Assembly (NCBI GenBank): GCA_016927495.1
Contig: JAFGMP010000040.1
Span: 3,585-67,584 of the forward strand
DNA: 64,000 bases
Reading direction: 5' to 3'
Source of the DNA: Candidatus Latescibacterota bacterium
GTDB taxonomy: Bacteria; Latescibacterota; Latescibacteria; Latescibacterales; Latescibacteraceae
This document shows positions 24,695 to 34,322 of this stretch, piece by piece. The stretch's first letter is position 1. Every line of letters begins with the position of its first letter. The position numbers and the translations under genes were made by a program. Below the pieces are notes generated by a model. The model was not told the DNA's origin. It saw only the letters and a list, made by a program, of their open reading frames with translations, and ran no database searches.

Positions 24695-26914
24695 ATGAAT
24701 CTAACCTTGAAAAGAAAAATAATCATTCTGACAATTCTGGCAACGAGTATACCTGTATTAATCATGTTTACCCTAACTGTTGATTATCAGGGAATAACCG
24801 CAAACCAGGCCGATGTAAATTTTGACGTTTTAGCAAAAATGAATATTGATCAGATCGCAAAAGATGTATATGGCTTATGTGATACCACTAATGATTTGAT
24901 TCAAAGTAAGGTAAATAATGATTTAAATGTTGCGCGAAGAATTCTTATACAACAAGGTTACGTGAACCTGGGACGGGAAATGGTTACATGGCAAGCCGAA
25001 AACCAGTATACAGGGCAGGATTATACGATTCAACTTCCCAAAATGCTTGTCGGTAATAACTGGCTGGGTAACAGCCGCAACTTCCTGACATCTGTTTCTG
25101 TCGTCGATGATGTCAAAGAACTTGTCGGTGGAACCTGTACCATTTTTCAGCGCATGAACGAAAAGGGTGATATGCTGCGGGTTGCGACGAATGTAGAAAG
25201 TCTTGACAATACCCGTGCTATAGGAACATATATACCGGCGATAAATCCGGACGGAGCACAGAATCCGGTGATTAATTCCGTACTTCACGGCAACACATTC
25301 AGAGGTTTGGCATATGTTGTAAATAACTGGTATATAACAGCTTATGAACCAATTAAAGACAATAACGGAATGGTAATGGGAATGCTTTATGTCGGTGAAA
25401 AGCTTGAATCGGTAGAAACGCTTCGCGAAACAATAATGAAAACGAAAGTCGGTAAAACCGGATATGTTTATGTCATCGGTGCGTTAGGTGAAAGCAAAGG
25501 AACATATATTATCTCAAAAGACGGAATTCGCGATGGAGAAAATATTTGGGACGCAAAGGATGATAACGGCAACTTTTTTATTCAATCAATTGTCAATAAA
25601 GCGCTTAATCTTAAAGACGGTAATCTTGCGTATGAAGAATATCCTTGGAAAAACATAGGAGAACCTGCTGCACGAAATAAAATTGCAGCAATTACATACT
25701 TCGAACCATGGGACTGGGTAATTTGCGCAAGTATGTATGAGGACGATTATCACTTTATAAAAAACCAGTTTGGTGAATTGACCGATAATTTGATTAAAAA
25801 GTTGATTTTGGTCGGTATATGTGTTCTCACTCTGGCAACTCTATCAGCCATTGCTGTCAGTAATCGTATTACAAGACCGTTGGGTTTGATAATAAATCTG
25901 GCAAATAAGATTGCTACCGGAGATTTGCAGAATGCAAAAAATGATTTAGCCGCATTTTCAAAACGTTATCAGTCAAATAAAAAATCGAAATTGTTAATTT
26001 CAGATGCCGATGAGACCTTTCAGTTACTTGATACCTTCAGGACAATGACAGGCAGTCTTGATTCTCTTATAGGGCAGGTTCAACAATCGGGTATTCAGGT
26101 AACAACATCTGCCACAGAAATTTCCGCATCGGTTCAGCAGCTTCAGGCCGCAGTCGTGGAACAGGCCGCCTCAGCAAAACAGGTCTCCGTAACGAGCAAA
26201 CAAATTTCAGCAACCTCCGAACCTCTTGTCCGGACTATGGATGAAGTAAGTGAGACAATATCGGAAACCGAAACAATGGCAGAATCAGGACGTAATGATC
26301 TTAACAATATGGAAACGGTGATTCAGCAACTTATCAAAGCAACTAACTCAATTTCATCAAAACTTTCGGTTATAAACGAAAAAACAAACAAAATATCCAG
26401 TGTCGGCATCACCATTAATAAAATTTCCGATCAGACGCATCTTCTGGCACTTAACGCGGCGATTGAAGCTGAAAAAGCCGGTGAATACGGCAGAGGATTT
26501 GCTGTTGTAGCGCGTGAAATCAATCGTCTTGCAGACCAGACGGCTATTGCTACTCAGGAAATTGAATACATGGTTAAAGAAATGCAGTCGTCCGTATCTT
26601 CCGGCGTGATGGAAATGGACAAGTTTTCTGAGGAAGTACGGATTGGCGTCGAAGCAGTCGCCACAATCGGCGAACAACTCGGGAAAATCATCGACCAGGT
26701 GCGGGCTCTCGGTCCACAGTTCGATACGGTAAAAGAAGGAATGCATGTACAGGATCAGGGTGCTCAGGAAATTAATGATGCCATCAATCAATTATCTGAT
26801 ACGGCTGAACAGATAAAAATGTCGCTCAATGAGTTTAAAATGACAACAGAGCAACTGAATACAGCAGTACAGGGATTACAAAGTGAAGTATCACGTTTCA
26901 AGATAAGTTCTTAA
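24695..26914 (+). CDS. Methyl-accepting chemotaxis protein with a periplasmic Cache-type sensor, HAMP and MCP signalling domains
   Basis: TM1 is at aa 8-28. A roughly 335-aa extracytoplasmic region follows, probably a double Cache. TM2 is [19 protein letters not shown], then a HAMP domain, then the MCP core [42 protein letters not shown]. Confidence 0.85.
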
Positions 26915-26998
26915 ACACTAATTAGATAGTATAATAATATAAAGTATTACTTTAAAATTAGACGACAGTAGAAATCACAACTATTACCACAGGAAAAT

Positions 26999-27460
26999 AT
27001 GCTTCTTATCCTTTTCAATGCGGGAAATGAACGTTTTGGTATCGATGTTGAACACGTGATTGAAGTTGCTCCTCTGGTCAGATTCAGAAAAGCACCTCAC
27101 ACACCCAATTATGTGGCCGGATTGTTCAATTACCGTGGCACCATTGTTCCGGTTATAGATTTAACGGCTCTTATTGCAAAAAAACCCTCAAAACCATTGT
27201 TAAGTACTCGTATAATTCTGGTAAAGTATGTTTTTTCAAAAGATAGCGAACATATACTGGGCCTAATGGCTGAAAAAGTTATGGAAACGATTACATGCAG
27301 TGAAGATGACTTTCAGCCGCCGGGTATTGACTCCGATACATCACACTACCTTGGGGATGTAATGTATGATACTGATGGTATGATACAAAAGATATCATTT
27401 GAAAAGTTATTTCCCGATTCACTGAAAAAGCTGCTTTTCAAAGACAAAAAGGAAGCATAA
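26999..27460 (+). CDS. cheW: CheW coupling protein
   Basis: 153 aa. FGIDVEHVIEV...VAGLFNYRGTIVPVIDL is a CheW-like domain. Confidence 0.85.
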   Translation: MLLILFNAGNERFGIDVEHVIEVAPLVRFRKAPHTPNYVAGLFNYRGTIVPVIDLTALIAKKPSKPLLSTRIILVKYVFSKDSEHILGLMAEKVMETITCSEDDFQPPGIDSDTSHYLGDVMYDTDGMIQKISFEKLFPDSLKKLLFKDKKEA

Positions 27461-27463
27461 TAA

Positions 27464-32093: not shown

Positions 32094-33117
32094 AAGATTG
32101 CGTATCGCTATTGTAAACGATCAAAACATTGCAGTTGAAACCATTCGCCGGATTGTGATTACCGTACCAGAGTATGAAATTGCATGGATTGCATCAAATG
32201 GCGCGGAAGCATTGGAAAAGTGCCGTAAGGATAAACCGGACCTTATCTTAATGGATATTGTAATGCCCGTAATGGATGGAGTTCAGGCAACCAGTGCGAT
32301 AATGGAGTCATGCCCCTGTGCAATACTTGTCGTTACTGCAACAGTATCCGGAAATGCGACAAAAGTGTTTGAGGCAATGGGATGCGGCGCTCTCGATGCA
32401 GTATCCACACCTGTTTTTAACGGTGAAGGAAAAATTGTTGGCGCTGATGATCTGATAAAAAAAATTAACATGCTGGGTAGACTCATCAGGGTAAACAATA
32501 CAGACAGAAAAACAGTACCAATAGAAAAAAAATCAACATCTTCAGTTGTTCCACCACTTGTGGCAATCGGATGCTCAACCGGAGGCCCTAAAGCTCTTTC
32601 CATAATTCTTTCCGGAATGCCCAAAAATCCGGGTGCTTCTTTTGTAATCGTGCAACACGTCGATGTCCAGTTTGCCAGTGGCCTCGCCGAATGGCTTAAT
32701 AATCAGACCAAACTTGATGTAACACTAGCCCGTGAAGGCAGGCAGCCGGAAAAAGATACGGTTTATATTGCTGAAACGAACGACCATTTGGTTATAAATT
32801 CGGATTTGACTTTCCATTACACAAAAGAGCCGCGAGATTACCCTTTCAGGCCTTCAATTGATACATTTTACCTGAGTATCGACAAAAACTGGCCGAGGAA
32901 AGATATAGCCGTATTATTGACGGGTATCGGCAAAGACGGCGCGCATGGATTACTTGCCCTGAACAAAGCAGGCTGGCATACTATCGTACAGGATGAAAAA
33001 ACATCGGTCGCTTTCGGTATGCCCAAAACGGCAATAATTTTAGGAGCTGCCAAACAAATATTACCGATTGACAATATCGAAGATTCAATTATGAAACAAT
33101 TAAAGAAAAGAGTATAA
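32080..33117 (+). CDS. cheB: CheB methylesterase with an N-terminal receiver
   Basis: The REC is [12 protein letters not shown]...[14 protein letters not shown]. The methylesterase core is [21 protein letters not shown]...FVIVQHVD. A probable TTG start overlaps the cheA end. Confidence 0.85.
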
Positions 33118-33122
33118 AAAAT

Positions 33123-34322
33123 ATGCATTCTACCGATAGTAACAAAATCTCATCACCGCTTACACAGTATGATATCACCGTGCTGTTGGTAGATGACCAA
33201 AAAATAGTCGCCGCAGCAGTTGAACGTATGCTTGGGGGAGAAAAAGATATAACCTTTCACTACTGCCAGGATCCGACCAAAGCAATCAGAGTAGCATCCG
33301 AGATATTCCCAACCGTTATACTTCAGGATCTTGTCATGCCGGAAATTGACGGATTAACCCTTGTCAGGTTTTTCCGCGCCCATCCTCAACTCAAAGATGT
33401 GCCGCTCATCGTTCTTTCGACAAAAGAAGAAGCTATCACCAAAGCCGATGCCTTTTCCTTGGGAGCAAACGACTATCTCGTAAAATTGCCCGATAAAGTT
33501 GAACTGATCGCCCGGATTCGCTATCATTCACACGCATACATCAACCTTTTGCAGCGAAACGAAGCCTATAACGAATTGCTGAAAAGCCAGCAGGCTCTTG
33601 CATCGGAACTCGCCATAGCAGCGGATCATGTTACCTCACTGCTTCCGCAGCCAATCACTGCCGGGCCTATCCTGACCGACTGGTATTTTGTACCATCAAC
33701 TCAATTAGGAGGTGATTCGTTCGGTTATCACTGGATCGATGAAGATCATTTTGCCATGTATCTCCTCGATGTGTGCGACCACGGTGTCGGTTCGGCGCTT
33801 CTCTCTGTTTCGGCGCTCAATGTTCTGAGGTCTCAAAGCCTGCCCGATACAGACTTTAAAATACCCGAAAAGGTTCTATCCGGACTCAATGATGCATTTC
33901 AGATGGATGATCATAACAACCTATATTTCACACTCTGGTATGGCGTGTTGAATACGAAAAATTATGAACTCAAATATGCCAGCGGGGGCCACCCTCCTGC
34001 GTTCCTTTTCTCCGGTACAGATCGGTTTGATGAGTTGATTACAAAAAACTTCCTTATCGGCGGACTTCCTGGCTCAGTTTACAAAGGTGAATCGGTACAG
34101 ATTGAACGTCCAGCACGTCTTTATATTTTCTCGGATGGTGTGTATGAGGTACATCGTCAGGATGGCACAATGTGGGGATTGAGTGAACTCCATAACTTTC
34201 TTATGAATCCTCATGAAGAAACCACATCCGAAATCGAGAAATTATATTCGCTGGTACATGAAATCAATGGAAACAAAAATCTCGATGATGATTATTCAAT
34301 ACTTAAGGTTAGTTTTCTTTAA
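33123..34322 (+). CDS. Response regulator with a PP2C/SpoIIE-type Ser phosphatase output (RsbU-like)
   Basis: The REC is VLLVDDQKIVAAAVERML...DLVMPEIDGLTLV...PLIVLSTKEE. The PP2C region is GGDSFGYHWIDEDHFAMYLLDVCDHGVGSALLS...YIFSDGVYE. Confidence 0.8.
   Translation: MHSTDSNKISSPLTQYDITVLLVDDQKIVAAAVERMLGGEKDITFHYCQDPTKAIRVASEIFPTVILQDLVMPEIDGLTLVRFFRAHPQLKDVPLIVLSTKEEAITKADAFSLGANDYLVKLPDKVELIARIRYHSHAYINLLQRNEAYNELLKSQQALASELAIAADHVTSLLPQPITAGPILTDWYFVPSTQLGGDSFGYHWIDEDHFAMYLLDVCDHGVGSALLSVSALNVLRSQSLPDTDFKIPEKVLSGLNDAFQMDDHNNLYFTLWYGVLNTKNYELKYASGGHPPAFLFSGTDRFDELITKNFLIGGLPGSVYKGESVQIERPARLYIFSDGVYEVHRQDGTMWGLSELHNFLMNPHEETTSEIEKLYSLVHEINGNKNLDDDYSILKVSFL

Follow-up and report, generated by a model that had tools for sequence, protein, structure and literature searches.

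Gene Content of the Chemosensory Operon

The stretch of DNA analyzed here (hereafter the window) comprises 64,000 nucleotides (nt) of contig JAFGMP010000040.1, from the genome of a Candidatus Latescibacterota bacterium (assembly GCA_016927495.1, positions 3,585 to 67,584). Its central element is an operon of seven co-oriented chemosensory (Che) genes at 24695-34322 on the + strand, which lies behind a type VI secretion system (T6SS) cluster. The seven genes, recognized from a listing of the open reading frames (ORFs) and by Pfam, are spaced by -14 to +84 nt and occupy the positions given in an earlier reading that had been made from the DNA letters alone (the sequence-only reading). That reading had named a methyl-accepting chemotaxis protein (MCP), CheW, CheR with a TPR tail, a CheW-like protein, a CheA-REC hybrid with two Hpt domains, CheB and a REC-PP2C regulator, and every member of this set was found with support from Pfam (Table 1). 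We consider it likely that the operon encodes a Wsp-type pathway of the alternative cellular function (ACF) class with a REC-PP2C output, most probably feeding a partner switch composed of the adjacent STAS and RsbW-like proteins.

Table 1. Positions in the window of the Che operon genes, the partner-switch genes and the upstream T6SS region.
Feature	Position	Strand	Evidence and remarks
MCP, WspA position	24695-26914	+	Pfam Cache_3-Cache_2 4e-96, MCPsignal 1e-31
CheW coupling protein, WspB position	26999-27460	+	Pfam CheW 2e-25
CheR methyltransferase with C-terminal TPR, WspC position	27464-28726	+	Pfam CheR 9e-40, TPR_8/TPR_1 1e-7
Second CheW-like protein, WspD position	28723-29397	+	Pfam CheW 1e-16, residues 77-217
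CheA-REC hybrid kinase, WspE position	29394-32093	+	Pfam: two Hpt stretches, HATPase_c, CheW, REC
CheB methylesterase with N-terminal REC, WspF position	32080-33117	+	Pfam CheB_methylest 2e-53, REC 2e-16
REC-SpoIIE/PP2C output regulator	33123-34322	+	Pfam SpoIIE 6e-35, REC 1e-18
RsbW/SpoIIAB-like serine kinase, 138 aa	23749-24165	+	Pfam HATPase_c_2 4e-25
Single-domain STAS protein, anti-sigma-factor antagonist type	24190-24522	+	Pfam STAS 2e-21
X258, 258 aa, T6SS-associated, no Pfam family	22956-23732	+	214 homologues, 47-69% identity
T6SS cluster	85-22892	+	Pfam; TssM C-terminal part, TssA, TssB, TssC, Hcp, TssE, TssF, TssG
T6SS cluster, further members	85-22892	+	ClpV, VgrG, DUF2169, two pentapeptide-repeat proteins, DUF3540, PAAR-like

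The MCP has two transmembrane helices by hydropathy (residues 5-30 and 362-390), a periplasmic Cache_3-Cache_2 sensor, a HAMP domain and a signalling domain. The hairpin tip, Glu597, is followed by the last 142 residues of the protein, and HAMP leads straight into the N arm; by this length arithmetic only, the MCP is consistent with heptad class 40H (2 x 20 heptads). Assignment of the class from alignment gaps was dropped, since the MCP aligned without gaps to TM1143 and PcaY alike (structures 2ch7 and 6s18), so that gaps cannot tell the heptad classes apart. The second CheW-like protein carries a 76-residue N-terminal extension, and its gene overlaps each of its neighbours by 4 nt. Both Hpt copies of CheA retain the phospho-accepting His (His53 and His209) in a motif ending [RK]GAARIVGL, and the phospho-acceptor Asp of the C-terminal REC domain is found in an IISDVDMP motif (residues 825-832); NCBIfam gave generic CheA matches only, which were below the model cut-offs. 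The catalytic motifs of CheB are intact, with Ser in GCSTGG, His in VQHVD and Asp in GKDGA.

A search with a REC profile at full sensitivity, covering all 469 six-frame ORFs that reach 50 amino acids, matched only the REC domains of CheA, CheB and REC-PP2C, and no single-domain CheY was found among them. In addition, no window ORF with a length of 110 amino acids or more gave a Pfam match to CheY, CheZ, CheC/X, GGDEF or a sigma factor. These data agree with the sequence-only reading, which had held REC-PP2C to be the only stand-alone output regulator and the window to be without a single-domain CheY, CheZ or CheC. One may ask whether the operon simply serves chemotaxis by motility, with its cheY gene at a distant site of the genome that lies beyond the 64-kb window. 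We find this most improbable. No flagellar genes were seen within the 64 kb by Pfam scans, which gave no CheY, CheZ or CheC/X either, and a stand-alone REC ORF occurred in only 1 of 86 related loci. Furthermore, the CheA-REC hybrid, CheR-TPR, two CheW proteins and multidomain response regulator of the operon match the features reported for ACF pathways, of whose clusters CheR-TPR is a marker (PMC3447774). The proposal of an ACF pathway of the Frz, Wsp or Chp kind is supported, and could be narrowed to the Wsp type by the gene order and by the WspR-like REC domain and stalk of the output regulator.

The REC-PP2C Output Regulator

The AlphaFold model of REC-PP2C, built on 29 homologues (pLDDT 82.7), showed a REC domain (residues 18-124) joined to a PP2C domain (183-398) by one continuous helix of 48 residues (125-172). 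We found that the REC domain and stalk (residues 9-161) align without gaps to WspR of both Pseudomonas aeruginosa (3bre; 58% identity, E 1.1e-51) and Pseudomonas syringae (3i5a; 60% identity, E 2.7e-51). In a PDB sequence search, the whole chain also gave a match to RssB of P. aeruginosa, which likewise combines REC with PP2C (3eq2, E 2e-22). RssB was also the best Foldseek match (3f7a, E 7e-26, with ~24% sequence identity), followed by WspR, SiaA-PP2C, RsbX and SpoIIE.

Residues D198, D216 and D338 of REC-PP2C align to D610, D628 and D746 of SpoIIE, respectively. In an alignment of 85 sequences of the family, D198, D216, H220, G221, S337-D338-G339 and D389-D390, which include the DxxxHG and SDG motifs, were invariant, and so were D24, D25, D69, S99 and K121 of the REC domain. 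The presence of a complete metal site and of the conserved REC residues suggests that the phosphatase is catalytically competent and regulated by phosphorylation, as predicted from these alignments. The catalytic Asp residues of the PP2C domain are therefore in place, and this complete predicted active site, together with the adjacent STAS/RsbW-like pair, supports a probable output by protein dephosphorylation, as had been proposed in the sequence-only reading.

An alternative explanation is that REC-PP2C is inactive as a phosphatase and serves as an RssB-like adaptor or as a phosphate sink for CheA. P. aeruginosa RssB is indeed its best whole-chain match with a PP2C domain in both structure and sequence, and the PP2C-like domain of Escherichia coli RssB is degenerate and serves as a proteolysis adaptor. 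We regard this explanation as very unlikely, because the four metal-binding Asp positions and the two motifs are invariant throughout the family alignment, and because the genes of a cognate kinase and STAS protein lie close by.

The Adjacent RsbW-Like Kinase and STAS Protein

The genes of the RsbW-like kinase and of the STAS protein lie between X258, a T6SS-associated gene described below, and the Che operon. The kinase gene follows X258 after 16 nt and the STAS gene follows the kinase gene after 24 nt, and a 172-nt AT-rich spacer, in which no terminator was detected in a scan of 22400-36100, separates the STAS gene from that of the MCP. The RsbW and SpoIIAB models of NCBIfam matched the kinase below their cut-offs. 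Since these equivalog cut-offs were not reached, we treat the protein as a relative of RsbW/SpoIIAB and not as an orthologue. Its N box (E45, E46 and N50), G1 box (G82 and F85) and G2 box (G106 and G108) are intact and are conserved in 26 orthologues. The STAS protein matched the NCBIfam model ant_ant_sig well above the cut-off (3e-23; 81.6 bits vs. 53.45), and 25 orthologues retain its residues S54, S55, G57 and R59, within the motif DY[IV]SSAGLR (DYVSSAGLR in the window). We take Ser55 to be the predicted site of phosphorylation, by alignment to Ser58 of SpoIIAA.

When the genes downstream of REC-PP2C in other loci with the Che-PP2C operon were clustered, RsbW-like and STAS genes made up the two most populous groups (18 and 16 loci, respectively). 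STAS is presumed to be the substrate of REC-PP2C, and the RsbW-like protein is presumed to be both the kinase and the binding partner of STAS. A different protein was observed in some of the related loci, which are designated here by L numbers: in L008 (11214-12731, + strand) and L093 (~2.1-3.6 kb past REC-PP2C), proteins of ~505-511 amino acids with a C-terminal HATPase_c_2 domain replace the minimal 138-residue kinase after REC-PP2C.

Distribution and Conservation of the Operon

Databases contain over 8000 homologues of REC-PP2C, spread across phyla at ~60-75% identity. The best 120 of these are all ~399 amino acids in length, show 63-76% identity, and originate from Latescibacteria, Deltaproteobacteria/Syntrophales and Lentisphaerae. 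The gene order of the window was kept in all 31 complete seven-gene loci that were obtained from 80 metagenomic loci. A tandem pair of REC-PP2C genes was observed in L162, L165 and L167, with products 55-63% identical to the window protein. In L169 (4491-6107, + strand), a natural CheR-CheW fusion of 538 amino acids fills the WspC and WspD positions, and mirrors the activating wspC-wspD fusion that arose during experimental evolution of Pseudomonas fluorescens (PMC6324874).

A survey published in 2012 lists a fusion of REC to a "Ser/Thr phosphatase family 2C" domain as one kind of response regulator in CheR-TPR (ACF) clusters, and remarks that the ACF table of the 2010 classification contains these architectures too (PMC3447774). 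The architecture is thus widespread and already catalogued, and its placement beside a T6SS cluster is the only unusual aspect. In this respect the sequence-only reading stands for the Che operon itself; it understated how common the operon type is, overlooked the T6SS cluster, and left the RsbW-like/STAS genes at 23749-24522 outside its coordinates.

Non-motility chemosensory arrays are numerous, and outputs are known for only a handful of them. Among the examples from uncultured lineages in this analysis, the family that combines a Wsp core with PP2C ranks with the most conserved and the most widely spread. It presents the Wsp signalling core as a portable module, in which the output domain is swapped and the receiver and stalk are left nearly unchanged.

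The T6SS Cluster, X258 and Other Genes of the Window

In the visible part of the T6SS cluster, from the C-terminal part of TssM to the PAAR-like gene, we found no Hanks-type kinase, FHA protein, TagF or PppA. The VgrG module (16243-22892, + strand), comprising DUF2169, pentapeptide-repeat proteins of 340 and 812 amino acids, DUF3540 and a Tox-PAAR-like protein, is also present in most X258 loci. The ORF of ClpV (10386-13094, + strand) encodes 902 amino acids and overlaps tssG by 35 nt, whereas the gene on the identical Logan contig was called with 875 amino acids; ClpV probably starts ~27 codons downstream of the ORF start.

The X258 family is sharply conserved (257-261 amino acids; 214 homologues with 47-69% identity) and has no Pfam or NCBIfam model. 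The start assigned by the ORF finder (22944) is probably four codons early, as compared with the homologues. T6SS core genes were found within the 10-kb flanks of X258 in 67 of 80 genome loci; these loci belong to Desulfobacterales, Syntrophales, Acidobacteriota and Latescibacterota, and X258 is typically the next gene after that of the PAAR-like protein or ClpV. The AlphaFold model of X258 (pLDDT 91.5) consists of a flavodoxin/TIR-like N-domain and a beta-sandwich C-domain. X258 looks like an undescribed accessory component of T6SS, and could be a link or docking point between T6SS and the partner switch. A function as a pseudo-receiver was considered and rejected, as the ends of β1 and β3 form no Asp pocket and the REC profile gave no match. 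Two further candidates were rejected: the 258-residue gene upstream of the L008 MCP has no BLASTP similarity to X258, the equal length being coincidental, and the 57-residue ORF after X258 in L171 is not an RsbW homologue.

A divergent VipB/TssC-like paralogue of ~525 amino acids, with only 20-25% identity to the window TssC, lies beside X258 in many other genomes, for example in L002 (10857-12431, - strand) and L172 (10808-12400, + strand). Weak TssC matches beside X258 were also observed in L012, L014, L015, L045, L047, L048, L059, L060, L063 and L079-L082. Where the canonical sheath genes are visible, this paralogue is additional to them; it is absent from the window.

Downstream of the Che operon, a convergent gene (34309-35535, - strand) overlaps the REC-PP2C stop by 14 nt. 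Its product is likely secreted and contains CarboxypepD_reg, Big_7 and Spondin_N (7e-46) domains. It is followed by an unusual repetitive array of at least eight paralogous PQQ_2/BamB-like beta-propeller proteins (36032-41010, 44340-46034, 49893-51146 and 56614-60667, + strand), whose genes are interspersed with those of Fe-S, NuoF-like and FAD oxidoreductases (42319-49996), a glycosyltransferase and a MacB/FtsX-type ABC transporter. An Rfam search of 22000-36500 gave no matches.

Adjacency of the Che Operon to T6SS

The Che-PP2C operon comes directly after the T6SS cluster, with the kinase and STAS genes inserted at the T6SS 3' end on the same strand. We found T6SS/Che-PP2C adjacency in at least four divergent genomes, in which the mutual identity of CheA is only 45-53%, and in three arrangements. 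In L003/L004/L010, the genes from VgrG to PAAR and X258 are followed by the Che operon. In L005/L006, the order PAAR-X258-RsbW-STAS is convergent with an inverted Che operon, and the same convergent arrangement was found in L169, the locus with the CheR-CheW fusion. In L009/L140, where the contig begins at X258, the Che operon comes next and is followed by RsbW-STAS. In three genomes, RsbW-STAS lies on the T6SS strand behind the last T6SS gene, with 14-24 nt between the genes, and not with the phosphatase. The linked REC-PP2C sequences occupied two separate places in a quick neighbour-joining tree. That the adjacency is kept through inversion and gene relocation argues for a functional coupling, and so does the position of the kinase and STAS genes, which come after T6SS genes. 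L003/L004/L010 (DATKXY010000275.1) is a contig labelled "archaeon" with a bacterial-type T6SS, a Wsp-like Che operon and an X258 that is 63% identical to that of the window; it is probably a mis-binned bacterial contig.

These observations led us to a tentative proposal, which we regard as possible but somewhat doubtful, that in this Latescibacteria-related lineage a Wsp-like array is coupled to T6SS via the PP2C/STAS/RsbW-like switch, and that a chemical cue sensed by the periplasmic Cache domains would gate the expression or firing of T6SS. A review of T6SS regulation from 2023 mentions no chemosensory, anti-sigma or STAS input (PMC10482370). It does describe the repression of the Pseudomonas putida K1-T6SS by the Wsp-WspR-c-di-GMP-FleQ route (c-di-GMP, cyclic di-GMP), so that a connection from Wsp to T6SS has a precedent via other chemistry (PMC10482370).

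Several observations weigh against the pathway as we read it. With respect to the partner switch, among the 54 related loci whose downstream sequence extends for 1.5 kb or more, tblastn detected the RsbW/STAS pair in only 15; its pairing in cis with the Che-PP2C operon is common, not universal. Neither a sigma factor nor another obvious partner-switch target was found among the window ORFs of at least 110 amino acids, and such a target may be encoded elsewhere in the genome. In the literature searched, which did not extend to subscription journals, we found no experimental or biochemical study of a Wsp-type PP2C system, and nothing directly relevant to CheY-PP2C, to the combination of chemosensory genes, T6SS and partner switching, or to T6SS with STAS. 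With respect to T6SS, 79 of the 80 metagenomic Che-PP2C loci contained no T6SS gene, although these loci extend at most ~2 kb upstream of the MCP gene, and no T6SS genes were found in L007 and L008. Similarly, Che genes were absent from 65 of the 67 X258-T6SS loci, and L172, whose X258 shows 58% identity, has a VipB-like gene in place of the Che operon. Finally, a scan of 22400-36100 yielded 44 promoter-like sites (41 expected) and 16 terminator-like sites (11 expected); as this is at chance level, it lends no support to a co-transcription of the Che module with the T6SS genes.

The distribution data also bear on another explanation, in which the partner switch works as described here and controls a global regulator, for instance a sigma factor, that is encoded elsewhere in the genome, or else a programme for stress or biofilm formation; its position beside T6SS would then be inherited synteny of no regulatory significance. 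We consider the chances of this explanation only a little short of even. It accounts for the presence of the seven-gene operon in dozens of loci without visible T6SS genes and for the lack of Che genes in most X258-carrying T6SS clusters, as well as in L172. It is also in line with the known partner switches CrsR/CrsA and HsbR/HsbA, which control RpoS, FlgM or biofilm formation (PMC9855816; PMC8256260). On the other hand, inherited synteny fits less well with an adjacency that persists among such divergent CheA sequences despite the inversion of the Che operon and the relocation of RsbW-STAS, or with the close succession of the last T6SS gene, the kinase gene and the STAS gene in three genomes, and the window has no sigma factor gene.

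If the coupling to T6SS holds true, it would represent a mode of T6SS control that is not in the 2023 review (PMC10482370), a T6SS counterpart of the Bordetella BtrUVW switch for type III secretion, and a protein-phosphorylation alternative to the repression of T6SS by Wsp, c-di-GMP and FleQ. A functional linkage would also add chemoreceptor-based, adaptation-capable sensing to the known triggers of T6SS, and give a testable role to a partner switch without a sigma factor. Without a functional linkage, the locus would be an ordinary member of a catalogued class.

Proposed Mechanism

Based on the gene content, order and domains, the intact catalytic and phospho-acceptor residues, the WspR-type REC domain and the recurrent RsbW/STAS linkage observed above, we propose the following pathway, in which the specificity of phosphotransfer, the activation by oligomerization, STAS as the substrate and the final target are inferred. 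The membrane-bound, double-Cache chemoreceptor would form arrays with the two CheW-type couplers and the CheA-REC hybrid, and methylation by CheR-TPR and demethylation by CheB would provide adaptation. Phosphorylated CheA would then phosphorylate REC-PP2C, the sole stand-alone response regulator. This phosphorylation probably leads to an oligomerization mediated by the stalk, which would turn on the SpoIIE-type phosphatase; we favor such an activation because the REC domain and long stalk helix are WspR-like, and the activation of RsbU-type phosphatases is driven by dimerization. The active phosphatase would strip from Ser55 of STAS the phosphate placed there by the adjacent RsbW-like kinase, and the dephosphorylated STAS protein may in turn bind the RsbW-like kinase, as in a partner switch, or bind a target protein directly. 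The T6SS cluster is the leading candidate for the final target in this lineage, with the chances nonetheless rather against it.

Comparison with Known Systems

The window operon has the same seven-gene order as the Wsp system, MCP-CheW-CheR-TPR-CheW-CheA-REC-CheB-REC output corresponding to wspA-F and wspR (PMC6324874), and the REC domain and stalk of its output are 58-60% identical to those of WspR. By its length alone, the MCP may belong to 40H, the class reported for WspA (PMC2577667). In contrast to Wsp, the output domain is SpoIIE/PP2C and not a GGDEF cyclase, so that protein dephosphorylation would take the place of c-di-GMP synthesis. The sensor of the window MCP is a periplasmic Cache_3-Cache_2 domain, and the host is known as a metagenome-assembled genome of Latescibacteria. 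The pathway is therefore Wsp-like up to the receiver, and is not a Wsp system, as the GGDEF output is missing. With the ACF class in general, it shares the tight clustering of MCP, CheA, CheW, CheR and CheB, the CheR-TPR protein and the multidomain output regulator.

The che1 cluster of Shewanella oneidensis, with CrsR and CrsA, is likewise a chemosensory cluster that encodes a STAS antagonist and a partner-switch response regulator (PMC9855816). It differs from the window operon in being of the F7 type, with CheY1, CheD and a single CheW, whereas the window has its kinase as a separate protein of 138 amino acids and no evident sigma factor. In P. aeruginosa, the REC-PP2C protein HsbR acts on the STAS protein HsbA (PA3346/PA3347), which is phosphorylated at a conserved serine (PMC8256260). 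Where the input to HsbR/HsbA and RssB is known, it comes from an HptB phosphorelay, in contrast to the chemosensory array of the window. SypE/SypA is a further relative in its logic (PMC8256260).

Two known systems connect a PP2C phosphatase with a secretion machine. The threonine phosphorylation pathway of T6SS (PpkA/PppA/Fha, TagF) also employs a kinase and PP2C pair for post-translational control of assembly (PMC10482370). The window phosphatase differs from it in belonging to the SpoIIE family and in being accompanied by a STAS/HATPase_c_2 pair, with no Hanks kinase, FHA protein or TagF in the visible cluster. In Bordetella, the trio of BtrU, BtrV and BtrW, which are PP2C, STAS and RsbW-like proteins, respectively, is encoded within a secretion-system locus and is needed for secretion (PMC8256260). 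BtrUVW controls type III and not type VI secretion, and has no chemosensory input. Nevertheless, no other known system offers a better precedent for the gating of a secretion machine by a partner switch.

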